Below are positions 12,105-27,484 of a DNA stretch of 54,015 nt, in pieces. Under the pieces are notes generated by a model. The model was not told where the DNA came from and searched no databases. It worked only from the letters and a program-made list of their open reading frames with translations. The stretch's first letter is position 1. Every line of letters begins with the position of its first letter. The DNA is taken from contig JAXDML010000006.1 of the NCBI GenBank assembly GCA_034666125.1, positions 1 to 54,015 of the forward strand, in the 5' to 3' direction. The position numbers and the translations under genes were made by a program. This DNA is from Candidatus Parcubacteria bacterium. GTDB taxonomy: Bacteria > Patescibacteriota > Minisyncoccia > Phycocordibacterales > Phycocordibacteraceae.

Positions 12105-12902
12105 ATGTCCAAACAATCCCTCGGACAGAACTTCCTCATGCATCCGCAGACCGCGGAACGCATCGTGCATACCGCGAGACTGCCGCAGGACAGAACCATA
12201 CTTGAGATCGGTCCGGGTACCGGTATGCTCACGCGCGCGTTGCTTGCGGAAGGGCACGCGGTCGTCGCCGTCGAAGCGGACGGGGAACTCGTCGAGGAGC
12301 TTGCAAGAACGTTCGCGGACGAAGTCGGAAAAAAGAAACTCGTACTCGTGCACGAGGACATACGGAAATTCGATACGGTAGCGCTTCCGAAAAAGTACTC
12401 TCTGGTCGCGAACATCCCGTACTACCTCACCGGCGAGATCATCCGGACGTTCCTGAGCGCGAAACATAAGCCGCAGTCCATGACGCTCCTCGTGCAGAAG
12501 GAAGTGGCCGAACGGATCACCGGCCGGGGAGCGAAGCGGACCAAAGAGAAACCGAAGGAGAGCCTGCTATCGCTATCGGTACAGGCATACGGGACGCCCG
12601 AATTCGCCTTTGTCGTACCGAGAGGCGCGTTCCGCCCCGCGCCGAAGGTGGACTCGGCGATCATTTCGATACGGAACATCCGCCAGCATGCTTTTGCGGA
12701 TGAAATCGAGGAGCACTCTTTCTTTGCGATCCTCAAAGCCGGGTTCGCGCACAAGCGGAAGCTTCTCGCGGGGAATCTCTCCCTCCATTTTCCGCCGGAA
12801 AAGGTCGCACGCGCATTCAAAGAGTCCGGACTGTCTTCAAAAGCGCGTTCCGAAGACCTCGCGCTCGCCGATTGGCGACTTCTTGCAACGCATTTGCGCT
12901 AA
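12105..12902 (+). CDS. rsmA: 16S rRNA (adenine1518/1519-N6)-dimethyltransferase
   Basis: SLGQNFLMHP, EIGPGTGMLT and ANIPYYLTG are typical KsgA/RsmA motifs. Confidence 0.93.
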   Translation: MSKQSLGQNFLMHPQTAERIVHTARLPQDRTILEIGPGTGMLTRALLAEGHAVVAVEADGELVEELARTFADEVGKKKLVLVHEDIRKFDTVALPKKYSLVANIPYYLTGEIIRTFLSAKHKPQSMTLLVQKEVAERITGRGAKRTKEKPKESLLSLSVQAYGTPEFAFVVPRGAFRPAPKVDSAIISIRNIRQHAFADEIEEHSFFAILKAGFAHKRKLLAGNLSLHFPPEKVARAFKESGLSSKARSEDLALADWRLLATHLR

Positions 12903-13032: not shown

Positions 13033-14016
13033 ATGCGTATTTCCCCTCGTAATCTGCGTATCGCCGGAGCCTCCCTTATCGCCGTCCTGATGGTCGCGGG
13101 CGGCTATGTCCTTCCCGGCTTCAAGTTTCCGAAAACCAAGGCCGTTAACGCGGAACTCACCGACGATCTCCTCGCGTCGTATGTCACTAAGGACACCGAC
13201 TCGGACGGGCTTCCGGACTGGCAGGAAGTGCTCTATGGGACCGACGCTAACAAGGCCGATTCCGATGGAGACGGCATTCCCGACGGCGAAGCCGTCAGTC
13301 GCGGGCTCCTGACCCCGACCGCGCTCGCGTCCCAGATTCCCACGGACCCGATCGGCGAGGAATTCTCTGAGGACGCAGCCGCTCCCGGAAGCATCACCGA
13401 CCAGTTCTCGCGCGCTTTCTTCCAGGCGTATATGGAAGAAAGCGGCGGACAGCCTATGAGCCAGGAAGCACAGCAGGCCCTTCTGCAGCGGCTCCTTGCA
13501 GACTTCAATGCGCGCGGAGCCTCGAAGCTTAGTTCCGCCTATTCCGCCGTCTCGGTCCGTACTGATGTGAGCGTGAGTACTGCCGTATACGCGAAGTCCG
13601 TCGAAGACATCCTGGGTGCGAACGTCATAAGAGGAACGGACGCAAGCGCGATCCTCCTCACGGCACAACTCATCCTGGAGGACGACGCGAGCGCGACCGG
13701 AAAGCTTGAGCGCGTCGCTTCGGCATACAGCAATATCGCAAGTTCCCTGCTAAAAACTCGAGTACCGCCGCAACTTGCCCAGCATCATCTCGAGCTTCTG
13801 CGCTCTTTCGACACCTTAGGGAAGAGCACGAAGCAGATCGCCGCGTACAAGGAAGACCCGCTCGGCGTCCTCGGCGCGCTCGCCGTGTTCCAACCGGCTG
13901 CGGAACAGCTTGATCGGGGGATCAACGGGGTCGCGACTGAGATCCTAAAGTCCGGTGAACCGCTCGAAGGTGCGCCGGGAGATCTCATCGTTTCCATCGC
14001 ACGTCTTGAAATATGA
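13033..14016 (+). CDS. Membrane-anchored protein with thrombospondin-type-3-like Asp-rich Ca-binding repeats
   Basis: N-terminal TM (LIAVLMVAGGYVL), then DTDSDGLPDWQEVLYGTDANKADSDGDGIPDGEAV, then a helical C-domain. First gene of the VirB4-containing cluster. Its stop overlaps the next start (ATGA). Confidence 0.6.
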   Translation: MRISPRNLRIAGASLIAVLMVAGGYVLPGFKFPKTKAVNAELTDDLLASYVTKDTDSDGLPDWQEVLYGTDANKADSDGDGIPDGEAVSRGLLTPTALASQIPTDPIGEEFSEDAAAPGSITDQFSRAFFQAYMEESGGQPMSQEAQQALLQRLLADFNARGASKLSSAYSAVSVRTDVSVSTAVYAKSVEDILGANVIRGTDASAILLTAQLILEDDASATGKLERVASAYSNIASSLLKTRVPPQLAQHHLELLRSFDTLGKSTKQIAAYKEDPLGVLGALAVFQPAAEQLDRGINGVATEILKSGEPLEGAPGDLIVSIARLEI

Positions 14017-15530
14017 AAACTGATGCGCACATGAGCGGGCGTGCGGGACATGCAATAGTTATTATCGCCTTGGTCCTAGCCGGCATTGCCGCGCTTTATT
14101 TGACCGTCCACCCGCAGCGCGCCGAGGCGCAAGCGGGCTGCGCAGCCGCTGAGCTGCAAACGGCGCTCAAAAGCAAGGTCGAGGCCTTAAAGGAAGCGAA
14201 GCCCGGCCTCCCGACCTTTGATGCCGCCAACCTTACGGCCACTACGAAGATAAGTTCGCGAAGCACGATCATGTGCATCCTTGACGGCCTCGCCTGGACC
14301 GCCGCGAAAGTCGCGCTGAAATCCATGACCCAAAGCGTCGTGAACTGGATCAATTCGGGCTTCGAAGGTTCGCCGGCTTTCATAACCGACCTGAATCGTA
14401 ACCTCGGGAACCTTTCGGACGCGGTTGCCAATGATTTCTTGAACGGGCTGAATCAGGTCGTGATCAGCAATACGGGCTTCAACATCCGCGCGCCCTTCCA
14501 GGACCAGATAGCCGCGGCGCTTCGCCAAGAGTTCTACCGTACGACGAGCAGTTACGGCTTCGACGTCCGTAATCCGTACAAGGAATGCTATGGCGACGGA
14601 TTCAGCATCAACGGCTTCCTTTGCGAGGGGCAGAATGCCGGGAATAACCCGTACGGCCGGTATCAGCTCGCGCGCGACGAGCTTTTCAGACAGGTGGATA
14701 CTGCCGCGCGAACGCGCATAACGGAGCTCGGCTGGGCCAAAGGATTCCTTTCGTGGCGCGGGCCGTGCGGACAGTACGGGACCAATGCGTATCCCGGTCC
14801 GAATGATAACGCGGCCGCAGACGCACTCACGAAGACGGCCGTGCAGCTTTCGCAAGCGGAAACGACCAATAATTGCTCGATACGCACTCCGGGCGCGGTC
14901 ATCGAGAACGCGCTCGGCATATCGGTTACCTCTCCTTTCCGCCAGCTCGAGCTCGCCGACTCCGTGAACGAGATCGTCGCGGCCCTTATGACCCAGATGG
15001 TCAACCAGGTGCTCGGCGGCGCCGGACTTACGGGGGTTTCCCAGCCGGCAGCCGGCGGCGGTACCTCGTACATCAACCAGAATGCGGGCGAATATACGAG
15101 CTTCGCGACCGAGGTCGCGAATGGGTTCAGTGCGGACCTCGAAACGCTGCAGCGGGCCGTCAGTACGTACCGGTCCCAGTGGCAAAGGATCGACGGCGCC
15201 GCGCGGAACGCACAGAGCGCATGCGCGAACGATAGCTCCAAGGCCTCGCAAGCGGCAGCGGTCCTTGCGAGGTCCGGGGCTGCGCTTGCGAAAGCGAGTG
15301 CCGCGATCACTGCCATCGCAACGACACAGACGCAGATAAACGCGGCGCGAGGCACCACGAGTTCCGATCCGAACGCGCCTGACCCCGTCGTGAACGCCTA
15401 CCTTGCGCTAATAAAGGACACTTCGAGGATTCCGGGAGAAGATGAATTTTCCGAAGCTGAAAGGGAAAGCTCGGATACGGGCACCAGTCTCTACTCGCAG
15501 ATGACACGCCTCGCCGCATCCTGCAGATAA
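14013..15530 (+). CDS. Secreted or membrane-anchored hypothetical protein (505 aa, 8 Cys)
   Basis: TM/signal anchor AIVIIALVLAGIAALYL followed by an AEAQA cleavage-like site. Translationally coupled to the upstream gene. No recognisable catalytic motif. Confidence 0.55.
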   Translation: MKTDAHMSGRAGHAIVIIALVLAGIAALYLTVHPQRAEAQAGCAAAELQTALKSKVEALKEAKPGLPTFDAANLTATTKISSRSTIMCILDGLAWTAAKVALKSMTQSVVNWINSGFEGSPAFITDLNRNLGNLSDAVANDFLNGLNQVVISNTGFNIRAPFQDQIAAALRQEFYRTTSSYGFDVRNPYKECYGDGFSINGFLCEGQNAGNNPYGRYQLARDELFRQVDTAARTRITELGWAKGFLSWRGPCGQYGTNAYPGPNDNAAADALTKTAVQLSQAETTNNCSIRTPGAVIENALGISVTSPFRQLELADSVNEIVAALMTQMVNQVLGGAGLTGVSQPAAGGGTSYINQNAGEYTSFATEVANGFSADLETLQRAVSTYRSQWQRIDGAARNAQSACANDSSKASQAAAVLARSGAALAKASAAITAIATTQTQINAARGTTSSDPNAPDPVVNAYLALIKDTSRIPGEDEFSEAERESSDTGTSLYSQMTRLAASCR

Positions 15531-15534
15531 GGCC

Positions 15535-17949
15535 ATGAGAAACGTTTCTCGAAAAACGGCCGCGAAAATCGTAACGTTATTCTTTGCGCTTCTTATCCTA
15601 GGCGCAGCGCCCCTGAACGTATTCGCCCAGGACAGGCCTGCCGCGCCTGCGCCCGCAGCGCCGGTCCCGCCGGCAGGTCAGCCTACTCCCGCGCCGACGA
15701 GCGGCAGCGTAGACGACGCGCGTTCGATCTCGGAACTGCCTCCCGAGATGATAACGAACTGCGGAGGCACTCCGGGCGCGCAGACCTATTCTCAAGAGGT
15801 CAGGGACTGCTTGGTCAGGACTATCGCTGCAAGAGGCTCGACGGGAGAGCGCATCTCGAACCTGGTAGGCGGCGTCGCGGGCGCCGTCGGCGGGATCATA
15901 AACTGTACGGTCCAACTACCGTCCTGCCTCTTGAGCATCGTTTCCTATGCCATCCTCCAGTTCGCGAACCTACTCCTTGCCCTCGCGGGCACGCTCTTCA
16001 ACTGGGTCATCATGAAGACCGTGTTCCAGTTCGCGACGTTCCTGGGGAATGCGCCGGGGCTCCTCGCCGCCTGGGGCATCCTGCGCGATATCGGCAACAT
16101 GATGCTCTTGTTCGGTTTCATATTCATAGGCTTATCCACGATACTCGACCTGCAGACATATGCGGCGAAGAAAGCCCTCCCCCGGCTCATCATCTTCGCC
16201 ATCCTCATGAACTTCAGCCTGTTCGCGGCCGAGGCGGTCATCGATACGTCGAACGTATTGAGCGTCGTCATGTACCGGCAAGCGAATACGGACCCCGATT
16301 GCGTCTACAACGCCGCCGCGACGGGTGCAGGGTCTTCGGAGACTGCCGTAGGGAATCTCCGGAGCAGCAACAACTGCTTCATCAACAACGGTATCGCCGG
16401 GCGCGTGATGCAGACGACCGGCGCGTCGGGCATCTTCCAGACGCCCAACGGCAGCTATACGTACGAGAACGCCGCCGTGATGCTCATGCTCGCCGCCTTC
16501 GCTACCATTGCCGCGATAGTGCTCTTCGCGGGAGCGATCATGCTCGTCATCCGTGCGGTCACCCTCTCCCTCCTCATGGTATCCGCCCCGCTCGGTTTCG
16601 CCGGAATGGCCATCCCGCCGCTTAAGAAGATGGGGGAAGACTGGTGGAACCGCCTGCTGCACCAATCGTTCTTCGCGCCGATCTACATCCTCCTTATCTT
16701 CGTGGGTCTCAAGATATCCGACGCATTCTCGGGCGGGAGCGGGGCAAGCCTTGCCGCCGCGCTCCAACAGCCCGATCCCTCGGTCATGGGGATTCTGCTC
16801 GTCTTCGCGCTTTCCATCGCCTTCTTCGTCGCCGCGCTCATGGCCGCGAAGAAGTTCGGCGCGGCGGGTGCTGGCTTCGCGGTCAAGACCGCGACCGGGA
16901 TCACGGCCGGAAGCTTCGCCTTCGCGGGAAGGCGCACGGTCGGCCGTGCTGCCGCTGCCGGCGCAGCGAAGGTGCGGAGCTCACGCTTCGGACAGACTGA
17001 GCTCGGGAGACTGACGGCGGGAGGTCTCGACCGGGGCGCCAAGGCGGGCTTCGATTTCAGGAATACCAAGGCCGCCGCAGCGGCCGGGAAGCAGGTCGGT
17101 GACCTGGGCAAGGGCCAGACGGGCGGCTATAAGAAGACCCTCGACGATGCGGCGAAAGCTCGGACCGACTACGCGAAGTCGCTCAGGCAGACCAAGAAGG
17201 ACAAGGAAAAGGAGGCCGAGCTCAACACGCAGAAGGAACTCGTCGAGAACTCGAAGGAAGCCGAGAACGAGGTGTGGGAGGGACAGAAGGAAGAGATGGA
17301 AAAAGGGATCCAGACAAAGACCGGGGAGAACCAGACCCGGCAACAGCAGCGGGACCAGGAGCGCGCGTCACAGCTTGCCAAAGTCGCGGCGGCAGCGGCA
17401 GCGAAAGCGGCGGCGCCGACCGGGGACCTGATCGCCGACTCTGCGGTACGACGCTCGCTCGAGCAGGCTGAAGCTGCGGAACAGAAGATCCTTGACGACC
17501 TCGTGGCACAGCACGCGGTCGACGCAGCGAAGGATCAGCAAGAGGTCGCGACTCTGCGGGGCGACCTCTCTACAAGGGAGAAGGAGCATAAGGAAAACAT
17601 CAAAGGATTCGACAACAAGATCAAGGAGATCGATCTCCAGATCAACGGCGGCGTCGACAAGAAGACCGGGGAAATAATCGTAGGCGTAGGCGCGAACTCG
17701 GCGAAGCAGCGCTACGCCACGAACCTCGGCAGTTCCAGGCGCCGTACGCTCTCCGCCGCCGGGAACGCGCGCCACAGCGCATATGCGGCGATCGTAAAGG
17801 ACCTTAAGAAGACGAAAGAGGAGCGCATCGGGGACGAGATAAAGGAAGCGATACAGGGCATGGGACACGACGTGCACGACATCGAGCAGAAAGCCGAGGA
17901 AGCGCTGGGACGCCCGGGAAGCGATACGAGGGAAGGCGAGCACGGATAA
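15535..17949 (+). CDS. VirB6/TrbL-like polytopic membrane protein with a long charged coiled-coil tail (804 aa)
   Basis: Signal/TM, a Pro-rich stretch, then at least 6 hydrophobic helices (residues ~120-470), then a ~330-aa K/E/Q/A-rich tail. Sits upstream of PrgI-like and VirB4 genes, as in prgH-prgI-prgJ order. Family call rests on architecture and synteny. Confidence 0.5.
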   Translation: MRNVSRKTAAKIVTLFFALLILGAAPLNVFAQDRPAAPAPAAPVPPAGQPTPAPTSGSVDDARSISELPPEMITNCGGTPGAQTYSQEVRDCLVRTIAARGSTGERISNLVGGVAGAVGGIINCTVQLPSCLLSIVSYAILQFANLLLALAGTLFNWVIMKTVFQFATFLGNAPGLLAAWGILRDIGNMMLLFGFIFIGLSTILDLQTYAAKKALPRLIIFAILMNFSLFAAEAVIDTSNVLSVVMYRQANTDPDCVYNAAATGAGSSETAVGNLRSSNNCFINNGIAGRVMQTTGASGIFQTPNGSYTYENAAVMLMLAAFATIAAIVLFAGAIMLVIRAVTLSLLMVSAPLGFAGMAIPPLKKMGEDWWNRLLHQSFFAPIYILLIFVGLKISDAFSGGSGASLAAALQQPDPSVMGILLVFALSIAFFVAALMAAKKFGAAGAGFAVKTATGITAGSFAFAGRRTVGRAAAAGAAKVRSSRFGQTELGRLTAGGLDRGAKAGFDFRNTKAAAAAGKQVGDLGKGQTGGYKKTLDDAAKARTDYAKSLRQTKKDKEKEAELNTQKELVENSKEAENEVWEGQKEEMEKGIQTKTGENQTRQQQRDQERASQLAKVAAAAAAKAAAPTGDLIADSAVRRSLEQAEAAEQKILDDLVAQHAVDAAKDQQEVATLRGDLSTREKEHKENIKGFDNKIKEIDLQINGGVDKKTGEIIVGVGANSAKQRYATNLGSSRRRTLSAAGNARHSAYAAIVKDLKKTKEERIGDEIKEAIQGMGHDVHDIEQKAEEALGRPGSDTREGEHG

Positions 17950-17980
17950 ACCTATCCGTTACATCAAGTAGAATATAAAA

Positions 17981-19072
17981 ATGGACGAGGACATTGATAC
18001 ATCTGGAATGACGATCAACGAACGGGTTGCCATCCTCATGGATGAGCTGCCGGTGCCCGTCCAAAACTTCCTGAGGGGTCCCGACAGAGACGCCGTTTCG
18101 CTTGCGCTTGCACGCAAGTACCAGCTCCATGCGGACACGGCGGGTATATTCGAGCGCGCATACATCTATATGCTGCTCGGCGTGTATACGCCGGACGAAT
18201 TCGTGGCCGAACTGCGGGAAGGCGGTATCGGCGAGGAGACGATCCGGGGCCTGACTGCCGACGTGAACGAACAGGTCTTCAAGCGGCTGCGGGAGGAGGA
18301 GCGCACGGGAGTTCCGGCGTCCGTCGTTCCACCCGCACGTCCGCAGGTGCCGGTGATGGAGGTGGGGAACAGGGAAGCAGGACCGCCGGCTAACTTGCCG
18401 GGCCAGGTCGCTCCGCCGCAGCCGATATATCAGCCGCCCTCACCGGTTGCAGCCCCTCTCCCCGCCCCCGCCGTTGCAATTCCGGTGCCGCTTCCGCCGC
18501 CCGTGCTTACTGCAGCGGTACTACCGCCCTCACCCGTTCCGCCGCCCGTTCCTATATATAGCGCTCCGCCCATCCCGACGCCTCCGATATATCAAGCCCC
18601 GCCGCAGCCCCTAAGCTACGCTCCTCCCGTATCTCCTGCTTATGCGCCCCCGGCGGCTCCTTCTTCGTACCAGCCCCCCGCACCACCGCCCGTTCCTATA
18701 TATAGCGCTCCGGTTCCGTATCCTCCGGTTCCGGTCGAGACCTACCGACCGGTGGCACGAACCATGGAGAGGGACATGGAGTTGGCCGAGCAGGGATTCC
18801 AGGGCCAGGAATCGTTCGTCCCTTCTTTCCAGTCTTCGCCGGCGGCTCAAGCAGCCCAGACCTACGCTCCGGCACTCGCGCCCGTGGTTCCGTTTCCGCA
18901 GCCAGCAGCAGCTCCGCCTTCCGCACCGATACCCGTTCCCGAACCGCAGGCATCAAGCTATCCGCCGCCCGTCATGGCATCCGTCCGCCTCACGCCCGTC
19001 GATCGCGGATATGCGGACGCGCCCATCACGAAGGAATTCGGTAGCGACCCGTACCGCGAACCAATAGAATAG
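17981..19072 (+). CDS. Proline-rich protein with a helical N-domain (363 aa)
   Basis: About 105 aa of structured N-terminus, then P/A/V/Y-rich repeats (PPVPIYSAP twice, PIYQ(A/P)P twice). The exact 27-nt DNA repeat lies inside. Confidence 0.55.
   Translation: MDEDIDTSGMTINERVAILMDELPVPVQNFLRGPDRDAVSLALARKYQLHADTAGIFERAYIYMLLGVYTPDEFVAELREGGIGEETIRGLTADVNEQVFKRLREEERTGVPASVVPPARPQVPVMEVGNREAGPPANLPGQVAPPQPIYQPPSPVAAPLPAPAVAIPVPLPPPVLTAAVLPPSPVPPPVPIYSAPPIPTPPIYQAPPQPLSYAPPVSPAYAPPAAPSSYQPPAPPPVPIYSAPVPYPPVPVETYRPVARTMERDMELAEQGFQGQESFVPSFQSSPAAQAAQTYAPALAPVVPFPQPAAAPPSAPIPVPEPQASSYPPPVMASVRLTPVDRGYADAPITKEFGSDPYREPIE
18542..18568 (+). repeat. 27-nt direct repeat copy 1 (CCGCCCGTTCCTATATATAGCGCTCCG)
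   Basis: Identical copy at 18686-18712. Both are in frame and encode PPVPIYSAP. Confidence 0.9.
18686..18712 (+). repeat. 27-nt direct repeat copy 2
   Basis: Exact match to 18542-18568. Confidence 0.9.
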
Positions 19073-19109
19073 CCGCGCGCAGGCGGACCTGCTGCTATAC
19101 TACGTATAT

Positions 19110-19520
19110 ATGGAGGAGTACCAGGTACCCCAGTTCATTGAGGTCGAAGACAAGATCTTCGGACCGCTTTCGCTTAAGCAGTTCGTGTATGTGGCCGGCG
19201 GCATCGGTCTGTGCGTCATCATCCTCCTCTCGCTTCCACTCTACGTCGGCATCCTCCTCGCCCTTCCCGTAGCGCTTCTTTCAGGCGGGCTCGCCTTCTA
19301 TAAGATAAACAACAAGAACCTGGTGGACATCATCGAGGCGGCGCTGACGTTCTATACGAAGAGCCGCCTCTACCTCTGGAAGAAGGAGGAGAAGCCCGAA
19401 GCGCCACAGGCGCCGGCGCCGGAAGCTCCCGTGCGCGAGAAGCTCGTCCTCACGCAGGGAAAGCTGCGCGAACTCGCCTGGTCCCTCGATATCAAGGACC
19501 GCCAGCCGGGCAACCCATAG
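19110..19520 (+). CDS. PrgI/VirB3-like small membrane protein
   Basis: VPQFIEVEDKIFGPLSLKQFVYVAGGIGLCVIILL plus a second TM helix. Size, topology and position directly upstream of VirB4 match Gram-positive-type VirB3 analogues. Confidence 0.55.
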   Translation: MEEYQVPQFIEVEDKIFGPLSLKQFVYVAGGIGLCVIILLSLPLYVGILLALPVALLSGGLAFYKINNKNLVDIIEAALTFYTKSRLYLWKKEEKPEAPQAPAPEAPVREKLVLTQGKLRELAWSLDIKDRQPGNP

Positions 19521-19524
19521 AACC

Positions 19525-20160
19525 ATGGCATCTTCACGCGCATCACAGTCGTTCGTACCCGTCGAGGAAGTCCGGAGCGGCGTCGTCATCCTGAAGAGCG
19601 GCGGCTACCGCGGCATCATGATGTGTTCTTCGATCAACTTCGCGCTCAAGTCGGACGACGAGCAGAAGGCCATCATCGGCGGCTTTCAGAACTTCCTCAA
19701 TACCATCGACTTCTCGGTCGAGATCGTGGTCCATTCGCGCAAGACCGATATCCGCCCGTACCTGAGCCTTCTCGAGGAACGCATGGGTGCGCAGACGAGC
19801 GAACTCATGCGCGTGCAGCTGCGCGAATATATCGGCTTCATCCGGAACTTCATCGAGGGCGCGGACATCATGACGAAGACCTTCTACATCGTCGTTCCCT
19901 ATGACGGCAAGGGAGGTTCCAAGGTCGCGAGCACCCTGTCCTTCCTCGGAGGAACGAAGAAGTCCGAGGGCGGAGGGACGGGAGACGTCTCTTTCGACGA
20001 AGGCCGCATCCAGCTCGAACAACGGATGGCGCTCGTTCAGGGAGGGCTCGCATCCTCGGGGCTGCGCGCGGTCCCGCTCGGCACCGAAGAGATCATCGAG
20101 CTCCTCTACCGATCCTTCAACGTCGGCGAGATGGAGAATCCTATACGCCTGACCCAGTAA
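19525..20160 (+). CDS. Stand-alone paralogue of the VirB4 N-terminal domain (211 aa)
   Basis: VPVEEVRSGVVILKSGGYRGIMMCSSINFALKSDDEQKAIIGGFQNFLNTIDFSVEIVVHSRKTDIRPYL follows the pattern of VirB4/TrsE-type N-domains. There is no P-loop. Its stop lies 1 nt before the VirB4 start. Confidence 0.5.
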   Translation: MASSRASQSFVPVEEVRSGVVILKSGGYRGIMMCSSINFALKSDDEQKAIIGGFQNFLNTIDFSVEIVVHSRKTDIRPYLSLLEERMGAQTSELMRVQLREYIGFIRNFIEGADIMTKTFYIVVPYDGKGGSKVASTLSFLGGTKKSEGGGTGDVSFDEGRIQLEQRMALVQGGLASSGLRAVPLGTEEIIELLYRSFNVGEMENPIRLTQ

Positions 20161-20161
20161 T

Positions 20162-21982
20162 ATGGCACTGCTTGATTTCTTGAACCGGGGGAAGAAGGAC
20201 GACGAGGTGAAGATCACCCCCGTCCTGCCGCGGGACATATATGCCGAAGGGAAGCTCGACCTGGCGGACACGATCGCGCCGGCCGCGCTCAAGGTCGCCT
20301 CGCGTGAGCTCGAGCTTGGCGAGCGGGTCGCGCGTTCCTTCTATACCATCTCGTATCCGCGCTTCCTTACCGACTCCTGGTTCACCCCCATCATCAACCT
20401 CGACCGGGTCTTCGATGTGGGCATCTTCGTGCACCCGCTCGAGACGAGCATCATGCTCCGGAACTTCCAGAAGAAGGTCGCGGAAGTGGAGAGCCAGATC
20501 ATGGAACGCGAGACCAAGGGCCTCGTGAACGACCCGATGCTCGATACGGCATACCAGGACCTGGAGCAGCTGCGGAACAACCTGCAGCAGGCGCAAGAGA
20601 AGCTGTTCGAGGTCGGTCTCTATCTCACCCTGTACGCGAACACGAAGGAGGAGCTCGACAAGGTCGAGGGGGAGGTGCGCGGCATCCTCGACTCAAAGCT
20701 CGTATACACGAAGCCGGCACTCTTCGAGCAAGAGCAGGGCTTCCGTTCGACGCTTCCGCTCGCGCTCGACGAGCTGAATGTGCACTCGAAGCTCAATTCG
20801 TCGCCGCTCTCGAGCATCTTCCCGTTCGTTTCCTTCGACCTCTCGAGCGACCGCGGCATCCTGTACGGCATCAACCGGCACAATTCGTCCCTCATCCTCT
20901 TCGACCGGTTCAGCCTCGAGAACTACAACTCCGTCGTCTTCGCGAAGTCCGGCTCCGGCAAGTCGTACGCCGTGAAGCTGGAGATCCTCCGATCCCTCAT
21001 GTTCGAGACGGACGTCATCGTCATCGACCCGGAGCGCGAGTACGAGTACCTCGCGGAGGCCACGGGTGGCCGCTCGTTCAACATTTCGCTCTCGAGCGAG
21101 CACCACATCAACCCCTTCGACCTCCCGCCCGTGAAGGAGGACGAGGACCCTTCCGATATCCTGCGCGCGAACATCATCAACCTCGTGGGGCTCTTCCGTA
21201 TCATGCTCGGCGGGCTCACTCCCGAGGAGGACGCCATCATCGACCGCGCCATCAGCGAGACGTACGCGCTCAAGGACATCACGGGCGACGCGGACTTCAC
21301 CGGCATGGAGCCGCCGCTCCTTTCGGACTTCGAGAACGTGCTCTCGGGTATGGAAGGGAGCGGATCGCTCGTCACCCGTCTCTCGAAGTACACGCGCGGT
21401 ACCTGGGCCGGGTTCCTCAATCGCCCGACGAACATAGACATCAAGAAGCAGTTCATCGTCTTCTCGGTGCGCGACATGGAGGACGAGCTGAAGCCGGTGG
21501 CGATGTACATCATTACGCACTACATCTGGAACGCCATCCGGCAGGAACTCAAGAAGCGCCTCCTCGTGATCGACGAGGCGTGGTGGATGATGAAATCCGA
21601 GGATACGGCGTCCTTCCTCTACTCGCTCGCCAAGCGCGGCCGCAAATACTATCTCGGGCTCGCGACCATCACCCAGGACGTGGAGGACTTCCTCAGTTCC
21701 CCCTATGGCCGCCCGATCCTTTCCAACTCCTCCATCCAGCTCCTCCTCAAACAGTCGCCGACCGTGATCGACGCGCTCAAAGAGACCTTCAACCTGACCG
21801 ACGAGGAGAAGTTCCTGTTGCTCGAGTCGGGAGTCGGGGAGGGGCTCTTCTTCGCGGGACTGAAACACGTCGCCATCAAGATCGTCGCCTCGTATACCGA
21901 AGATCAGATCATCACGTCCGACCCGTCGCAGCTCCTTGCCATCAAGAAAGAGAAGGACCGGCACGACGCCGAAGGGCAGTAG
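20162..21982 (+). CDS. virB4: VirB4/TrsE/PrgJ-type type IV secretion ATPase
   Basis: Walker A VVFAKSGSGKSYAVK, Walker B LLVIDEAWWMM and ATITQDVEDF. Full N-domain plus ATPase domain, 606 aa. Confidence 0.85.
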   Translation: MALLDFLNRGKKDDEVKITPVLPRDIYAEGKLDLADTIAPAALKVASRELELGERVARSFYTISYPRFLTDSWFTPIINLDRVFDVGIFVHPLETSIMLRNFQKKVAEVESQIMERETKGLVNDPMLDTAYQDLEQLRNNLQQAQEKLFEVGLYLTLYANTKEELDKVEGEVRGILDSKLVYTKPALFEQEQGFRSTLPLALDELNVHSKLNSSPLSSIFPFVSFDLSSDRGILYGINRHNSSLILFDRFSLENYNSVVFAKSGSGKSYAVKLEILRSLMFETDVIVIDPEREYEYLAEATGGRSFNISLSSEHHINPFDLPPVKEDEDPSDILRANIINLVGLFRIMLGGLTPEEDAIIDRAISETYALKDITGDADFTGMEPPLLSDFENVLSGMEGSGSLVTRLSKYTRGTWAGFLNRPTNIDIKKQFIVFSVRDMEDELKPVAMYIITHYIWNAIRQELKKRLLVIDEAWWMMKSEDTASFLYSLAKRGRKYYLGLATITQDVEDFLSSPYGRPILSNSSIQLLLKQSPTVIDALKETFNLTDEEKFLLLESGVGEGLFFAGLKHVAIKIVASYTEDQIITSDPSQLLAIKKEKDRHDAEGQ

Positions 21983-21988
21983 CGGAGT

Positions 21989-22621
21989 ATGGTAGTTCCG
22001 GTCGTCGTAGCGGGAGCCAGGGTCGCGGCGGGAGCGGCCGGGAGACGGGGCGCCGCTCGAGCGGGTCGCACGACGACCCGACAATCCGTAGGAAGGAGGG
22101 GTATGGCAGAGGTCGAGGAGGCGCCGCGACCCGGCCGATACCCCCGACCGCAGACACGTCAAGCTGAAGACCGGGGAACGGCAAAAGGCGCCGAGCGGAT
22201 CACGTGGGTCACCGCCGGCGCCATGCTCGCGGTGATACTGCCGTTGGAAGCGGTCCAGGTGTTCCTCACTCTTACCCTGGTCATGGCGCCCGCAAGCATG
22301 CTTCCCGGCTTCCTGGAGGTATGCATCTTCATGTATTGGTTCCATCACACAAAAGCCTTCGAGGGGTCTCACAGCCTTACGAAGTTCCTTATAGTGCTTA
22401 TGCTTTGCACCGAGATCATTCCTTTCTGGAACGCCGTTTTTTGGGGCATGGGAGCCGTCATGAGGATGATCTACCTCGTGCGCCGTGAAGACAGGAAGGC
22501 GCGGCATCGCCCGGGCGGGCAGCAGCTCGCGCGCAACCGTGTCCAACAGAATGCGCAATCACGGGCGACGAATAGCAGCCTGTCGGGAACCGGATACGTC
22601 AGGGACCCGGAATCCCGCTAA
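21989..22621 (+). CDS. Membrane protein with an Arg/Gly-rich cytoplasmic N-tail
   Basis: ATG lies 6 nt after the VirB4 stop. Three to four TM helices (AMLAVILPLEAVQVFLTLTLV, FLEVCIFMYWF, FLIVLMLCTEIIPFW). Confidence 0.5.
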   Translation: MVVPVVVAGARVAAGAAGRRGAARAGRTTTRQSVGRRGMAEVEEAPRPGRYPRPQTRQAEDRGTAKGAERITWVTAGAMLAVILPLEAVQVFLTLTLVMAPASMLPGFLEVCIFMYWFHHTKAFEGSHSLTKFLIVLMLCTEIIPFWNAVFWGMGAVMRMIYLVRREDRKARHRPGGQQLARNRVQQNAQSRATNSSLSGTGYVRDPESR

Positions 22622-22678
22622 GACATATGGCGATAAGAGCCTGAGAAATGCCCTGGTGGGGGTATACTGTATCCATAT

Positions 22679-23671
22679 ATGAAGCGTGCTTTCGCTACCT
22701 TGCTCCTTTTCATCGCCGGGCTCGGCATCATGCATTTCTCTCACGTCTCCCATGCCCAGATCGGGGGAGCTGAACCGCTCCAGCTCACCATGACTCCCAG
22801 TTATCCGCGGCCTTACCAGCAGGTCATCGTCATCCCGCAAAGTTCGGTTATCGACCTTACGTCGAGTACGGTGGTCGTGACCGTGGACGGCAGGGAGGTG
22901 AGCCGGGGAAGCGGCGCCGAGGCGGCGTATATCACCGTCGGCGGCCCCGGCACGGCGACGAACGTGGTCGTGAGAGCGACGTCAGGCGGGCAGACATATA
23001 CGAAAAGCCTCACGATACGGCCTGCCGATGTCGCGCTCGTGGTCGAGTCCGGCTCGACGAGCCACCCGTTCTATGAGGGAGGCTCTCTCATCGCTTCCGA
23101 GGGCGGCGTGCGGCTCGTGGCGATCCCCGATATCCGTACTTCCGCCGGGACAAGCGTCCCGGCCGCGAACCTCGTCTATACCTGGCGTAACGGCGACCAG
23201 ATACTCCAGAGTTCGTCAGGGATCGGAAAGTCGGTGCTATCTGCGGTAGCGCCCACGAAATGGCGCGACGCGGCCATCACCCTGACCGTTACGACCCAGG
23301 ACCGCAGTATCGTCGCCGAGGCGACGGCGAGTATCGCTCCGGCAGACCCGTACCTGCGCGTATACCGTAACGACCCGCTCCTCGGCCCCCTCTTCGGAAC
23401 GGCACTCCCTTCCGACATCCTTCTGAATGGCGATGAAGAGACATTCCGCGCCGTTCCGTATTTCTTCTCAAGGAAGCCGGCATTCACCTGGGAAGTGGAC
23501 GGTATCCCGAGCGACAGCGACGAGGACGTGACCGTCCGTGCATCGGGACTCGGGAGCGGCACCGCGAGCCTCGGAGTTTCCGCCGGGCTCGCCGATACCT
23601 TCGAGACGGCAACCGCCGGGATGTCGGTGACCTTCGGCGAGGGGCGTTCCCTTGGTATCTTTGGACTATAG
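22679..23671 (+). CDS. Secreted protein with about three tandem beta-sandwich-like modules
   Basis: Signal peptide MKRAFATLLLFIAGLGIMHFSHVSHAQ. Beta-rich sequence with ~95-aa periodicity (modules end in TIRPADV, SIAPADP, MSVTFG). Confidence 0.55.
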   Translation: MKRAFATLLLFIAGLGIMHFSHVSHAQIGGAEPLQLTMTPSYPRPYQQVIVIPQSSVIDLTSSTVVVTVDGREVSRGSGAEAAYITVGGPGTATNVVVRATSGGQTYTKSLTIRPADVALVVESGSTSHPFYEGGSLIASEGGVRLVAIPDIRTSAGTSVPAANLVYTWRNGDQILQSSSGIGKSVLSAVAPTKWRDAAITLTVTTQDRSIVAEATASIAPADPYLRVYRNDPLLGPLFGTALPSDILLNGDEETFRAVPYFFSRKPAFTWEVDGIPSDSDEDVTVRASGLGSGTASLGVSAGLADTFETATAGMSVTFGEGRSLGIFGL

Positions 23672-23674
23672 CGT

Positions 23675-24991
23675 ATGCAACCCTTCGTAAAGAACCTTAG
23701 TGTGATCCTGCTCTTCGCAGCCATTGCGGTACCGGCCTTGGCGTTGGGGCAGAACAGGCCTCAACCGCCTACTCCGATAAACATCCTCGTGCTACGCAAT
23801 AGCACGAGCGCTGATCCTGAGCTTGATGAGGGAGACGTGGTTCAGAGCGACCGTGAGCGATACCGGGCATTCACGGCAGCGTGCAGTCCTACGGGAAATG
23901 ACATCAATGCTCGCTTGACGGGCTCGGGCTACGTCAGTTGCCCTGGCCAGGCTGAAGGAGCATCGCCGAATTGCGCCCCTTACACCTTGTACTGCGGGCC
24001 GGTTACAGCTCCTCCCGCCCAGCCCCAACAGCCGGGGGGCGGGGCGACACCCGCTCCGGCAACGGCACCCCCTACGGCGCAGACGGTGGCGGCTTCAGAC
24101 TCGTTCACGCCGCTCACGAACCTTCCCGGCATTACCACCACCGCGAACTCGGATACGCTCCCGGCGCTTTTCAATAACCTTTACAAGCTCTGCATCGGCG
24201 CGGCAGCGGTCATTGCGATCCTCCAGATCATGCGCGCGGGAACGTATTTCTTCTTCAACAAGGGGAGCGTCGCGCACAACGAAAAGGCAAAAGGCCTTAT
24301 ATCCAACTCCGTCCTCGGCCTTCTTCTCGTCCTGTCTCCCGCTATCGTCTTCGGCATAATCAATCCGGATATCCTGAAGCTTAACCTCGATATATCGAGG
24401 CTGAAGACCAGCTTTACGCCGCCCGCGCCGACCAGGCCGGACCTGAGGAACGAGACCTTCAGCCAGGAACGCCAGAACCAGCTTTTCTGCGAGGAGTTTA
24501 GGAAGCCGGGCCATAGGGTTCAGGCGGTTCCGTTCCAAGGAACGAACCGCAATGAATGCCAGCGAATCGAGGGCTCTAACAAGGGATGGATGAGTATCCC
24601 CACGGGATGCTGTTCCAACGTTCCGAGTCAGGGAATCTGTTGCGGATATGATCCGGACCAGGACGGAAGGCTTCTAAACCCTCCGACAGGAGGCGGGACC
24701 GGTGAGTTCTTTATCAACTACGTATTTAGTGACAGAGAAAGTCAGGATGATAACCCGAACACAAGATGCAAGGCACAGGATCGGCAGCAGTACGAGACTT
24801 TAGAGGCATGTACGCAGGCTCTCTACCCCCCTGCCGCAGTTATCGCCTGTGTTAGCGGAACTAACGGTAGTAGCGTGCCTTGCTATAGCTCCAAGGTACA
24901 TAACTGCAATGCGGCAAAGACATCAGTATATTTGCCAGACCGAGCCGCTTTCGATCGTATCAACGCTCTTACGACCTGTCTCTACGAGTAG
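23675..24991 (+). CDS. Secreted/membrane protein: VirB2/TrbC-like two-helix hairpin flanked by Cys-rich domains (438 aa)
   Basis: Signal peptide, 4-Cys N-region, Pro-rich linker, LYKLCIGAAAVIAILQIMRAGTYFFF-NKGSVAHNEKAKG-LISNSVLGLLLVLSPAIVFGIINP, then a C-domain with 12 Cys. Confidence 0.45.
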   Translation: MQPFVKNLSVILLFAAIAVPALALGQNRPQPPTPINILVLRNSTSADPELDEGDVVQSDRERYRAFTAACSPTGNDINARLTGSGYVSCPGQAEGASPNCAPYTLYCGPVTAPPAQPQQPGGGATPAPATAPPTAQTVAASDSFTPLTNLPGITTTANSDTLPALFNNLYKLCIGAAAVIAILQIMRAGTYFFFNKGSVAHNEKAKGLISNSVLGLLLVLSPAIVFGIINPDILKLNLDISRLKTSFTPPAPTRPDLRNETFSQERQNQLFCEEFRKPGHRVQAVPFQGTNRNECQRIEGSNKGWMSIPTGCCSNVPSQGICCGYDPDQDGRLLNPPTGGGTGEFFINYVFSDRESQDDNPNTRCKAQDRQQYETLEACTQALYPPAAVIACVSGTNGSSVPCYSSKVHNCNAAKTSVYLPDRAAFDRINALTTCLYE

Positions 24992-24994
24992 CGA

Positions 24995-26230
24995 ATGACC
25001 ATGAACCGCCGCCTTCTCACTCTCATCGCAGCCGTCATCCTCCTTTTCGGTATTCTTATCGGCCTGTACCTTCTGATCTTCGGCGGCTCGGCGGAACTTG
25101 TGGTTTCCGACGATCCGTTCGCCGGGACGGGAAGCGGGCTGGTAGACGGCGAGGGGTTGCCCGACATGCCGTCGGGGGCGGGGGAGGAGGTCGCGCCCCG
25201 GCTGATTCGCATAACGGAACGTCCAGTCGCGGAAGGAGTCGTTGCGATCAACCGCGTCTCCACGACGACCGAGCCGGTCGAGACCGCCTCGGGTACGCCG
25301 GCGCTTGCGGAAATAGTCGTGACCGACACCGAAGTCCGCTTCATAGACCGCGCGAGCGGGAACATCTACCGCTACACGGCGCACGAGCGGAGCCTCACAC
25401 GCATATCGAACAAGACCCTTCCGGGCATCCAGCGCGCCTCATGGCTCGCCGACGGCTCGGTCGCGTACGTGCAGCTGCTTTCGGGTACGGCGGGCAACGA
25501 GACCGTCGCCACCTACGTGCTTCCGGATTCGGGAGAAGGCGGCTTCTTCCTGGAGCAGGGGCTCTCTGCGACGCGGGCGACCTTGGCCGGCGGGCTCTTC
25601 ACGCTTCTCTCGGGAGCGACCGGCTCGGTCGGTTCGCTCTCGCAAAGCGACGGCACGAGCCAGCGGACGGTCTTCACCTCGTCCCTTTCCTCTTTAGTAG
25701 TGCACCCTACTCGCGGGAACTTCTTTGCATACACAAAGCCCTCGGCCTTTCTCGACGGATATGCGTTTCAGGTGAATGCGGCCTCGGGCGCGTTCGGGCG
25801 CGTGCTCGGACCCTTCCGGGGCCTCTCGGCACTTCCGAACCCTAACGGTACCCGGCTGCTGTACACCTATCTCGATCGCGGCTCGCCTCGCCTCGCCGTA
25901 TACGACGTCGCGGCGCGTACCGCGACCGCGCTCCCGATCGCGACCCTGACAGAGAAATGCGTATGGGCTCCCGACGGCCTCTCGGCGTACTGTGCCGTGC
26001 CGACGGGCCTTCAGAACGGCCTTCCGGATCTTTGGTACCAAGGAGCGGCCACGTTCTCTGATCGCCTGTGGAAGATCAACATGACCGATCGGTTCGCGAC
26101 GCTCGTCATAGACCCGAACACGGTGGCGAACATATCGATAGATGCGGTCGCGCTGCAGACGGATCCGGAAGAGGACGTCCTCCTGTTCACTGACAAGCAC
26201 AGCGGAGCGCTTTGGGTATACGACCTATAG
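24995..26230 (+). CDS. Membrane-anchored protein with PD40/TolB-like beta-propeller-type repeats
   Basis: TM LLTLIAAVILLFGILIGLYLLIF. Recurring motifs ADGSVAYV, PNGTRLLYTY, APDGLSAYC. Last gene of the cluster. Confidence 0.5.
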   Translation: MTMNRRLLTLIAAVILLFGILIGLYLLIFGGSAELVVSDDPFAGTGSGLVDGEGLPDMPSGAGEEVAPRLIRITERPVAEGVVAINRVSTTTEPVETASGTPALAEIVVTDTEVRFIDRASGNIYRYTAHERSLTRISNKTLPGIQRASWLADGSVAYVQLLSGTAGNETVATYVLPDSGEGGFFLEQGLSATRATLAGGLFTLLSGATGSVGSLSQSDGTSQRTVFTSSLSSLVVHPTRGNFFAYTKPSAFLDGYAFQVNAASGAFGRVLGPFRGLSALPNPNGTRLLYTYLDRGSPRLAVYDVAARTATALPIATLTEKCVWAPDGLSAYCAVPTGLQNGLPDLWYQGAATFSDRLWKINMTDRFATLVIDPNTVANISIDAVALQTDPEEDVLLFTDKHSGALWVYDL

Positions 26231-26971
26231 CGCCTGCTTCGGCCTTGGCACGGCGGGACGCTCCATCTTTCGTACGACGAGTTCCTGGAGCAGGCCGACG
26301 AGGCTCGCGGTGATGAAATAGAGCGCGACGGCTCCGGAGGTGACGAAGCCCACGACGCCGATCATAAGCGGAAGGAAATAGCGCGCCTGGACCGCCATCA
26401 TGCGGCCGAAGTCCTCGGTCGCGCTCCTCTTCTCTCCTGTCGAGGCTTTGGGGACGGGTATGGAAACGTAGGCGAGGGCGAATTGCGCGAGTGCGGCGAG
26501 GACGGCAAGCGCAACGCTCTTCCCCGCGACGCTGAATATCCCCAGGAATAAGGGGGAGATGACGGTCGGAACCGGAACGAACGAGTAGAGGAGCGTCGGA
26601 TCGATGTTGAAGATGGCTGCTCGGCTGAATACCAGATAGAGGGCGATGATGATCGGAAGCTGGATGATGAGTCCGAGGATGCTCGCGAACGGGCGGACGC
26701 CGTGCTCGCGATAGAGCGCCATCATCTCCTTCGCCTGCCGCTCCCGGTCGTTCTTGTACTTTTCCTTGAGTTCCTTCAGCTGCGGCTCGATAAGCTTCAT
26801 CTGTCGCTGGGTACGCACCGCGCGCAGCGAGAGCGGCATTAGGACCACCTTCACGATGACGGTCGCGAACACGACGGCAAGACCGACATCCCCGCCCGGA
26901 ACGATATCCGCCAGGAAGACGAGGAGGTTGTAGATCGGAACGTAAAGGAAGGTATGGAAAAGTCCGGACAT
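26225..26971 (-). CDS. yidC: Membrane protein insertase YidC (short form)
   Basis: VPIYNLLVFL...GLAVVFATVIVKVVLMPLS...MKLIEPQLKELKEKYKND...MALYREHGVRPF. Sits in the conserved rpmH-rnpA-yidC context. Confidence 0.9.
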   Translation of the reverse strand: MSGLFHTFLYVPIYNLLVFLADIVPGGDVGLAVVFATVIVKVVLMPLSLRAVRTQRQMKLIEPQLKELKEKYKNDRERQAKEMMALYREHGVRPFASILGLIIQLPIIIALYLVFSRAAIFNIDPTLLYSFVPVPTVISPLFLGIFSVAGKSVALAVLAALAQFALAYVSIPVPKASTGEKRSATEDFGRMMAVQARYFLPLMIGVVGFVTSGAVALYFITASLVGLLQELVVRKMERPAVPRPKQAL

Positions 26972-26981
26972 AAAAATACGG

Positions 26982-27320
26982 TTAATCGCGTGCGGGTAGT
27001 ATAGACCGTAGGAGGGAATTTAGCTCGTCCTTGAGTTCCGAAAAGGGAACTCCCGCCGCGCCCGCCCGCGCATGCACGACGAGAACACGGTCGTCTTTTG
27101 CAAACGGACGCAAGATAGAAAGGACGCGGCGCTTCAGGAGATGCCGCGATACTGCCAAGCGCGCCACTTTCTTCGAGATGACGGCGGCGGCTCCGCCCTT
27201 AGCGGGATCGCCTGAGCTGCCGTATGAAAGCGAAAAATGCTTGCTCGAGGCCCTTTTCAGGCCCCGGGTATCCGGAAATCGATGTCGGGAGAGACGGAGA
27301 GACCTTGGCAGCATGGCCAT
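26982..27320 (-). CDS. rnpA: RNase P protein component
   Basis: Start MAMLPRSLRLS at 27320. Basic protein with KKVARLAVSRHLLKRRV. Position between rpmH and yidC. Confidence 0.8.
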   Translation of the reverse strand: MAMLPRSLRLSRHRFPDTRGLKRASSKHFSLSYGSSGDPAKGGAAAVISKKVARLAVSRHLLKRRVLSILRPFAKDDRVLVVHARAGAAGVPFSELKDELNSLLRSILPARD

Positions 27321-27331
27321 GGCGGCGCGGC

Positions 27332-27484
27332 CTATCGCACCTTTTTCGAGACCGTGAGGGCGGCGCGGCCCTTGCGACGGCGTGCGAGGAGGACGCGGCG
27401 GCCGCCCGGAGTCGCCGTACGCGCCATGAAGCCGTGCGTACGCGCGCGCTTCCGCTTCTTGGGTTGGTAGGTCCGCTTGGGCAT
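27332..27484 (-). CDS. rpmH: 50S ribosomal protein L34
   Basis: Hand translation gives [50 protein letters not shown]. Below the ORF-track length cut-off. Confidence 0.92.

Follow-up and report, generated by a model that had tools for sequence, protein, structure and literature searches.

A Paceibacteria version of the Patescibacteria type IV secretion system next to dnaA, probably a non-conjugative host-contact machine

Introduction

Patescibacteria, which apparently live on other cells, represent much of bacterial diversity. Few machines have been shown to be essential for such a lifestyle, and their type IV secretion system (T4SS) is among them, namely in Saccharibacteria. What such a machine could serve for when it lies in the chromosome near dnaA, devoid of recognisable genes for conjugative DNA processing, is the question raised by a cluster of eleven genes at positions 13033-26230 of a 54,015-nt stretch of DNA (hereafter the window) from a Candidatus Parcubacteria bacterium (assembly GCA_034666125.1, contig JAXDML010000006.1, positions 1 to 54,015 of the forward strand). 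The original prediction, drawn from the letters of this DNA alone, had considered the cluster as a VirB4-centred surface apparatus, chromosomal rather than conjugative and adjacent to the replication origin. The analysis reported here supports this reading and leads to a more specific answer, that is the cluster is probably the Paceibacteria version of the T4SS of the Patescibacteria clade, a non-conjugative host-contact machine assembling a pilus or a conduit. Its gene set corresponds to a T4SS membrane platform and a pilin, chromosomally fixed and strongly constrained. Judging from sequence comparisons, the system is vertically inherited and derived from a monoderm conjugation apparatus of the CD1110/CTn2-like MPF-FATA type (MPF for mating-pair formation), from which the DNA-processing half, i.e. 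the relaxase and the dedicated coupling protein, appears to have been lost.

The system is already known, having been described in papers of 2023-2025 (PMC10633639, PMC12102498, PMC12857230), and is not of a new kind; what remains new is confined to accessory proteins specific to the lineage and to a decorated pilin. In the survey of 3,035 genomes by Quinonero-Coronel et al. (2025), 2,425 VirB4s fell into one Patescibacteria clade nested in MPF-FATA, with TrsD as the most abundant partner, usually adjacent to virB4, and with PrgI/VirB3, VirB6 and VirB2-like pilins nearby (PMC12102498). Relaxases and inter-class transfer were both found to be rare, an unrecognised relaxase being not formally excludable; genes resembling type IV coupling proteins (T4CP) were located far from virB4 and yet in most Patescibacteria genomes; dnaA, dnaN, rnpA, ksgA and rpmH were reported near the T4SS in Paceibacteria, and comF, recG and radA beside it in the class ABY1 (PMC12102498). 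A term search of the text of this survey returned no discussion of pilin-fused domains, of propeller or immunoglobulin (Ig)-like proteins, of the families numbered g1, g2, g4, g8, g9 and g11 below, or of VirB4 being more conserved than DnaA (PMC12102498).

Regarding function, Wang et al. (2023) showed by transposon sequencing that a Saccharibacterium cannot grow epibiotically without an apparent T4SS, SEML1_0006-0019; this requirement is established for Saccharibacteria only (PMC10633639). This essential cluster, which includes pilins, PrgI, a TrsD-like gene and VirB6, resembles Gram-positive conjugative systems and its pilins are themselves essential, but neither a coupling protein nor a relaxase could be recognised in it (PMC10633639). 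Besides, a 2025 review treats the Patescibacteria systems as the most recent addition to the T4SS superfamily (PMC12857230), and T4SS pilins are among the highest-expressed genes of unknown function in Paceibacterales living on methanogen hosts (PMC10936435).

A split VirB4 on a monoderm-type membrane platform

The eleven open reading frames (ORFs) of the cluster, numbered here g1 to g11, are all on the plus strand and exactly where the original prediction had put them. From g1 to g11, the intergenic gaps amount to -4 (an ATGA overlap at 14013), 4, 31, 37, 4, 1, 6, 57, 3 and 3 nt; the close spacing that had been described is thus confirmed, except for the junction at 21989, where g8 most likely starts further downstream and would leave a gap of about 120 nt after g7. 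The relatives considered throughout are 80 loci from species-representative genomes, chosen and ranked by VirB4 similarity (74-88% to g7) and spanning Kaiserbacteria, Nomurabacteria, Taylorbacteria, Campbellbacteria and unnamed Paceibacteria; individual loci are cited by number (e.g. L022).

The central component is g7 (20162-21982, plus strand), a VirB4 ATPase of the monoderm CD1110/MPF-FATA type, which matches the NCBIfam model NF045971 at 6e-111 (371.9 bits for a cut-off of 325, over model positions 183-733 of 752) and whose translation exhibits intact nucleoside triphosphatase motifs, namely Walker A (GSGKS) and Walker B (VIDEAW). Against PDB, it matches 4AG5 at 3e-44 and TrwK at 1e-8. The best 120 homologues listed, out of at least 8000 at E <= 1e-20, are 603-617 aa long and 85-100% identical, and all named clusters among them belong to Parcubacteria, Paceibacterota or Patescibacteria, while the nearest plasmid-borne VirB4s are 29-36% identical and all of Firmicute or Actinobacterial CD1110 type. 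On such identity comparisons, rather than on a tree, g7 groups with the VirB4s of Patescibacteria and not with those of plasmids or of integrative and conjugative elements (ICEs).

The N-terminal domain of VirB4 is found upstream as a separate cytoplasmic protein, the TrsD-like g6 (19525-20160, plus strand, 211 aa), which matches NCBIfam VirB4_plasma (6.6e-6) as well as positions 4-134 of the CD1110 model. All 50 orthologues of g6 that were scanned match VirB4 N-terminal models and 45 of them match NCBIfam TrsD; the equivalent protein in an independent gene call for this organism by the Joint Genome Institute (JGI) bears PF26593 (TraC-like), and the orthologue profile gave nothing significant against PDB sequences. 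Judging from these profile matches, VirB4 is encoded as two proteins, the TrsD-like N-domain g6 and the ATPase g7, and a separate TrsD-like gene adjoining virB4 is what is seen in the Patescibacteria clade. The TAA stop of g6 sits 1 nt before the ATG of g7 and in a different reading frame, and g6 stands as an ORF of its own ahead of VirB4 in 79 of the 80 related species, usually at 1-6 nt. A frameshifted pseudogene was considered and rejected: the split is not an error because the g7 homologues are of uniform length (all around 605 aa) and g6 is separate in those 79 species. In the original prediction, g6 had been counted among seven remaining genes for membrane-anchored or secreted proteins; this description is right for g1, g2 and g8 to g11 but not for g6, so these seven so-called accessory proteins included half of VirB4.

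The other platform components are small g5 and large g3. The former (19110-19520, plus strand), a PrgI/VirB3-like membrane protein present in 76 of the 80 loci, matches Pfam PF12666 at 1.5e-9 (38.7 bits, above the curated cut-off of 27) and is presumed to be the membrane anchor of VirB4. The latter (15535-17949, plus strand) is an extended VirB6/TrbL-like polytopic membrane protein with about eight hydrophobic segments followed by a C-terminal tail of some 330 aa, forming a charged coiled coil. As g3 itself has no Pfam match, it is assigned by transitivity via its orthologues, six out of 43 matching Pfam TrbL/VirB6 (best 1.9e-7) and one matching TrbL_4; the PDB matches of its profile were discarded as coiled-coil noise from the tail only. 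The VirB6/TrbL-like, PrgI/VirB3-like and VirB4 assignments first proposed from the letters are therefore all upheld, with VirB6 and PrgI/VirB3 lying near virB4 as in the Patescibacteria clade.

A decorated pilin with a hypervariable outer domain

The product of g10 (23675-24991, plus strand), rightly recognised at the outset as a Cys-rich VirB2-like protein, is a decorated pilin with a signal peptide and 17 Cys residues. From N- to C-terminus it consists of a small variable N-domain, a Pro-rich linker, a two-helix pilin core (residues ~143-236) and a hypervariable C-domain with 12 Cys. The direct Pfam T4SS_pilin match (6.7e-5, 23.3 bits) is below the cut-off of 26.6, and the assignment as a VirB2-like pilin near virB4 comes from the homologues, for which PF18895 is recorded in 24 of 60 and PF04956 in one, together with the AlphaFold2 model, where a hairpin of helices 162-194 and 199-229 is flanked by N-terminal and C-terminal alpha/beta regions. 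Foldseek searches of this model against PDB and viral structures returned no match below an E-value of 0.03; the conjugative-pilus structure 8dfu came up at 3.6, which is not taken as evidence.

Over 59 homologues, the median identity is 70% for the pilin core vs. 19% for the C-terminal extension, whose median length is 174 aa with a median of 10 Cys. The extension reaches at least 100 aa in 47 of 69 locus orthologues, and a more distant clade has simple short pilins; two tandem pilin genes are present in L049 and L050. A conserved core combined with a hypervariable Cys-rich C-domain is the pattern expected for an exposed host-interaction surface, and such a fast-evolving outer domain could set host range. 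Of note, the public gene call (L081, 9525-10430) begins g10 at codon 138 and yields 301 aa; this start is probably mis-called, since the homologues keep the signal peptide and N-domain that are dropped there.

Synteny, conservation and the case against a mobile element

Synteny was followed by tblastn and iterated hidden Markov model searches. The order g5-g6-g7-(g8)-g9-g10-g11-yidC-rnpA-dnaA-dnaN is encountered in almost every sufficiently long locus, g10 and g11 being swapped in some; about 47 loci also have g1-g4 upstream, along with rsmA and uvrD. A subclade of about 24 species (L016-L041) has housekeeping genes, and not g1-g4, upstream of the prgI-like gene; because g1-g4 are not adjacent there, the cluster is made of two modules, g1-g4 (module A) and g5-g11, of which the window gives a clean and complete Paceibacteria example. 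Within the first 9000 nt of one locus of this subclade (L022, 1-9000), a ComEC-like membrane protein (5525-7024) and a site-2-protease-like protein were noticed by eye. The original prediction would have been undermined by accessory genes not syntenic with VirB4 in relatives; in the 80 loci examined, they are syntenic.

Median identities to the window reach 80% for VirB4, 74% for DnaA, 59% for g6, 52% for DnaN, 49% for g5 and 46% for YidC, and range from 29 to 40% for g1-g4 and g9-g11. In each of the 61 loci compared, the identity of VirB4 exceeds that of DnaA, DnaA falling to 50% identity where VirB4 stays at 74% or above, an excess that is partly ascertainment because the loci were ranked by VirB4 similarity.

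Such a degree of conservation bears on the possibility that the cluster is a degenerate or domesticated ICE, either still mobilising DNA by means of unrecognised relaxase and coupling functions or decaying as a remnant. The VirB4 does descend from conjugative MPF-FATA systems, several neighbouring ORFs are unannotated and an unrecognised relaxase is formally conceivable, as also acknowledged in the 2025 survey (PMC12102498). On the other side, the Walker motifs are intact, VirB4 outranks DnaA in conservation, synteny is fixed in 80 species and inter-class transfer is rare (PMC12102498). In line with the original prediction, Pfam and NCBIfam scans of the large ORFs of the 54-kb window found no relaxase, no VirD4/FtsK-type or TcpA-type coupling ATPase and no VirB11-type protein, oriT not having been searched for; a T4SS free of relaxase and T4CP close to dnaA, rnpA and ksgA is what has been described for the Patescibacteria clade. 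Regarding the ICE hallmarks that had been named as refuting evidence, no att-like direct repeats flank the cluster, where only short chance matches occur, and no element-type integrase was found, the sole recombinase in the window being of XerC/D type (1e-72) and 8.7 kb away. The GC content is 0.58-0.63 across the whole window, the cluster being no different from the remainder, no synteny break at the borders was seen over the 80 species, and no relatives were found on viral contigs. A conventional or decaying ICE is thereby essentially excluded and, in any form, a mobile element is a most improbable explanation; the import of macromolecules and the export of effectors are the live rivals to a host-contact machine.

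Comparison with known type IV secretion systems

The closest described counterpart is another genome of one and the same system: in Parcubacteria RAAC4_OD1_1, genes 531-537 follow the order of the window, i.e. VirB6, an unannotated gene, VirB3/PrgI, TrsD and VirB4, with a VirB2-like gene two to three genes further on (PMC12102498), and systems of the RAAC4_OD1_1 type are likewise relaxase-free, with no difference of kind. In Southlakia epibionticum ML1, SEML1_0004-0019 has the same core order as the window, namely VirB6-like, PrgI, TrsD-like and VirB4; the published tables list an unnamed 293-aa gene at the TrsD position, a VirB4 of 612 aa, an exported Ig-like protein and a lysozyme, and the cluster extends from about 3.7 kb of the record just after recF (K03629), just before which the gene numbering begins (PMC10633639). 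In both systems VirB4 is followed by envelope proteins, Ig-like exported protein included, with PF18895 pilins nearby. They differ in that S. epibionticum possesses an array of six small pilins where the window has one decorated pilin, and that a lysozyme/glucosaminidase gene, an NTF2-like (VirB8-like) gene and two large VirB6-like proteins are only found in S. epibionticum, whereas the propeller protein, the TSP3 protein and the g2 family are only found in the window.

Among conjugative plasmids, pCDC3875 of Clostridium botulinum presents the order VirD4-x-VirB6-PrgI-x-VirB4 (797 aa)-x-SLT (soluble lytic transglycosylase) hydrolase together with a MOBP relaxase. Its VirB6-PrgI-x-VirB4 backbone is that of the window, which bears out the Gram-positive-type order initially likened to prgH-prgI-prgJ, and its VirB4 aligns to 89% of g7 with 33% identity. 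Unlike the window, however, pCDC3875 has a VirD4-like T4CP two genes upstream of VirB6, an unsplit VirB4 and no annotated pilin; in other words, compared with this plasmid the window is lacking the T4CP, the relaxase and the hydrolase, its VirB4 is split, and a pilin and envelope proteins are added. A small homologue of the VirB4 N-terminus beside the VirB4 ATPase is also known from the Trs system of staphylococcal pGO1 (TrsD and TrsE) but the latter is a conjugative plasmid with relaxase and T4CP, of a subclass without VirB6 homologue (PMC12102498).

Like the window, the ComB system of Helicobacter pylori and the archaeal Ced system rely on a VirB4-family ATPase with neither relaxase nor classical coupling protein, ComB spanning a diderm envelope. 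This likeness is one ground for considering an import machine, i.e. an inward T4SS of the ComB or Ced kind that would feed a nucleotide auxotroph with DNA or further macromolecules from the host. Further hints are the partial CedB match of g7 (1.6e-9 over ~70 residues), the resemblance to ComEC, by eye only, of the gene just upstream of the prgI-like gene in L022, and the location of comF, recG and radA beside the T4SS in ABY1 (PMC12102498). Still, the CedB match is limited to the shared ATPase core, and Pfam and NCBIfam scans of the cluster detected none of the ComB7-10 or CedA, CedA1 and CedA2 components that a DNA-uptake T4SS would comprise. In Saccharibacteria, moreover, deletion of comEC ends competence but not viability (PMC12857230); as comEC is dispensable and the T4SS essential, the essential role of the latter is not ComEC-dependent DNA uptake. 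Import is, on balance, unlikely.

Accessory envelope proteins

Six of the eleven genes, namely g1, g2, g4, g8, g9 and g11, encode proteins that no curated family matches over their full length, g1 having a match for its TSP3 repeat only. The first gene of module A, g1 (13033-14016, plus strand), codes for a membrane-anchored envelope protein with a transmembrane segment at residues 10-28, bacterial TSP3 Ca-binding repeats (Pfam TSP3_bac, 1.1e-5), as had been suspected, and a C-domain of about 200 aa of unassigned fold. The motif DxDxDGxxDW is conserved across 49 orthologues, the profile of which had no PDB sequence match; g1 occurs in 42 loci, and two tandem paralogues are seen in the more distant clade (L045-L073, e.g. 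L045 2310-3194 and 3391-4161).

The next gene, g2 (14013-15530, plus strand), specifies a membrane-anchored all-alpha envelope protein with a highly conserved central region and a C-terminus confidently modelled as a helical bundle by AlphaFold2 (predicted local distance difference test above 94 for residues ~355-505, low elsewhere). It has no match in Pfam, NCBIfam or PDB, a Pfam scan of the orthologue set gave no consistent family and a Foldseek search of the model against PDB gave no match below an E-value of 0.03. The family is nonetheless large: 241 word-indexed homologues were retrieved, all unnamed and from Paceibacteria, and 5038 representatives at the 50% identity level match the profile. 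Of the several conserved envelope families that are without assigned function in this system, g2 alone thus accounts for more than 5000 representative clusters.

In the second module, g8 is a small polytopic membrane protein with three to four transmembrane segments and a charged C-terminal tail. While its ORF opens at 21989, the start conserved in an alignment of 52 orthologues, and retained in the JGI gene call, is Met39 at 22103, which gives 172 aa (22103-22621, plus strand). It is poorly conserved, and a Pfam scan of the orthologue set found no consistent family. Two species (L017 7494-9593; L020 11799-13460) have a g8 that continues at its C-terminus into an additional soluble region of 300-450 aa, for which no family is obvious. 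The idea that an enlarged g8 stands in for VirB6 in the subclade without module A was rejected, given three to four transmembrane segments only and no TrbL match.

The beta-sandwich modules originally perceived in the cluster find support in g9 (22679-23671, plus strand), a secreted protein with a signal peptide, Ig-like beta-sandwich modules and a conserved terminal FGL. The profile of 65 orthologues matches phage T4 Hoc (3shs) in its Ig-like domains at 3.8e-5 over two stretches, a weak Cadherin-like match is also seen, and the gene is present in 76 of the 80 loci. The last cluster gene, g11 (24995-26230, plus strand), has a 6-nt overlap with the end of yidC, which is on the opposite strand, and encodes a membrane-anchored protein (transmembrane segment at residues 10-28; conserved Cys and Trp), present in 68 loci. 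It probably folds as a TolB/PD40-like beta-propeller, a call that is kept from the original prediction with the qualification that the profile of 51 orthologues matches TolB structures weakly (E 0.017-0.14); PD40 is recorded in one of the 51 members, and a Pfam scan of the set returned no consistent family.

Working model and remaining rivals

In the VirB system of Agrobacterium and in R388, VirD4 is not needed for pilin to be extracted and built into a pilus, both steps being driven by VirB4 and VirB6. By analogy with T4SSs in general, VirB4 docked on g5 and g3 would pull the g10 pilin out of the membrane, and g10 would be polymerised into a short pilus or a conduit crossing the monoderm wall, the hypervariable disulfide-rich domain facing outward on the structure. 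From the conservation pattern, host-specific contact could be ensured by this domain together with the Ig-like g9, the propeller g11, g1 and g2. The apparatus as a whole would serve a host-dependent life, by attachment and by transfer of protein or other material, and not conjugation. Of these functions, the assembly of a pilus or conduit is the surest, because VirB4, VirB3 and VirB6 would need no coupling protein to polymerise pilin.

Several considerations weigh against this model. Monoderm T4SSs are normally without pili, and a canonical pilus lattice may not accommodate a VirB2-like pilin that carries a globular domain of 200 aa; to our knowledge, no pilus of such a type has yet been seen and no Paceibacteria system has yet been studied experimentally. 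Neither a VirB8-like protein nor a cell-wall hydrolase was found in the cluster, which leaves a channel model incomplete, and module A, VirB6 included, does not adjoin VirB4 in the ~24 related species mentioned above. Besides, g2, g4 and g8 are without fold or family assignment, and the propeller match of g11 is weak. Finally, since most Patescibacteria genomes contain T4CP-like genes at other places (PMC12102498) and the negative result covers the 54 kb of the window only, the coupling of substrates, DNA included, is still conceivable.

Another rival view is that the cluster is an effector translocator, injecting proteins into the host to manipulate or lyse it, with the pilin as a short channel only and with substrates recruited either by a T4CP encoded elsewhere or by none, as in Bordetella Ptl or Brucella VirB. 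Effector systems without T4CP do exist (PMC12857230), T4CP homologues are common elsewhere in genomes of the candidate phyla radiation (PMC12102498), and, for the Saccharibacteria system, Wang et al. lean towards the export of proteins or else a different role (PMC10633639). The candidate substrate or adaptor would be g4 (17981-19072, plus strand), the Pro-rich protein already singled out in the original prediction, which is cytoplasmic, with neither transmembrane segment nor signal peptide, and largely disordered. Its conserved N-domain of about 100 aa is followed by a hypervariable Pro-rich linker (21.8% Pro for g4) and by a C-terminal DPYREP motif (within 19040-19072, the end of the gene) nearly invariant in 46 orthologues, which might act in docking or as a signal for export; no PDB or family match was obtained, including with the orthologue profile against PDB. 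We know of no precedent for the DPYREP motif as a T4SS signal, no effector is known, and the window has no toxin-like or effector-immunity-like genes. The unlinked T4CP homologue is also non-essential in Saccharibacteria (PMC12102498). Effector translocation consequently appears improbable, and is ranked just below import. As a side observation, the Pro-rich region of the g4 gene contains a direct repeat of 36 nt, 92% identical, at 18533-18568 and 18677-18712, which encodes a repeated peptide, PPPVPIYSAP.

The Paceibacteria form could also represent a distinct variant of the Patescibacteria T4SS, in which one VirB2-like pilin with a hypervariable disulfide-rich head, unlike the array of small pilins in Saccharibacteria, forms a decorated pilus or conduit, built by a split VirB4 together with the g1, g2, g9, g11 and g8 families, which have no counterpart in studied T4SSs, and acting as an obligate feeding or attachment tube, possibly an importing one. 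Such a variant is regarded as doubtful.

Genomic neighbourhood, replication origin and transcription

Upstream, the chromosomal border of the cluster is rsmA/ksgA (12105-12902, plus strand; Pfam RrnaAD, 7e-46), preceded by uvrD/pcrA (10132-12102; Pfam UvrD, 2e-79), both syntenic in the relatives carrying module A. Downstream, the anchor block spans 26225-30380 and comprises, as identified by Pfam, yidC (26225-26971, minus strand), rnpA (within 26982-27545, minus strand), dnaA (27652-29031, plus strand) and dnaN (29280-30380, plus strand), as well as rpmH, an L34 ORF (27332-27493, minus strand); this order is kept downstream of the cluster in related loci. The adjacency to the replication origin that had been put forward is supported by this rpmH/rnpA/yidC/dnaA/dnaN synteny alone: DnaA boxes are not enriched (seven matches, a number reached in 18 of 100 shuffles) and the GC skew over 12000-35000 cannot place oriC because it tracks the coding strand, being negative over plus-strand genes and positive over minus-strand ones. 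Were oriC located at rpmH/dnaA, transcription of the entire 13-kb cluster would run toward the origin and meet replication head-on. The genes SEML1_0004-0013 of S. epibionticum ML1, which occupy 3.7-21 kb on the minus strand (PMC10633639), would have the same head-on direction if the oriC of ML1 is the start of the record; gene orientation is not discussed in the 2025 survey (PMC12102498).

A scan of 12-28 kb for sigma-70 promoters and terminators gave nothing above chance. A -10-like box (TAGAAT or TATACT) is seen 7-10 nt before the ATG of g4, g5 and g9 (sites at 17965-17980, 19092-19109 and 22655-22678), with no Shine-Dalgarno sequence. Ahead of the prgI-like g5, TATACT stands 7-9 nt before the ATG and is kept at that spacing in 51 of 75 related loci. 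As the box is that close to the ATG and not accompanied by a Shine-Dalgarno sequence, it suggests leaderless or near-leaderless transcripts, with predicted leaderless starts at g1, g4, g5 and g9, and putative sub-operons g1-g3, g4, g5-g8 and g9-g11.

Of the other genes of the window, the M23 peptidase previously noticed upstream does exist, but on the minus strand (9070-9669, family scan). Some 14 kb downstream of the cluster, a 574-aa PilB/GspE-type ATPase (40035-41759, minus strand; PF00437 at 3e-103, with a MshEN N-domain) is by its family matches a motor of type IV pilus or type II secretion system, not a VirB11. Its neighbours at 41782-42690 and 42719-43288, both on the minus strand, have no family match. 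The cluster itself has no PilB/GspE ATPase, PilC platform or prepilins, and hence is not a type IV pilus or type II secretion system. Apart from housekeeping genes, also present in the window are a 423-aa protein with squalene-hopene-cyclase-type repeats (4e-8; 52598-53869, minus strand), a protein with a lamin-tail domain (47586-48509, minus strand), a Pro-rich membrane protein of 527 aa (6200-7783, plus strand) and two large ORFs without family match (334-1857, plus strand; 1832-3214, minus strand).

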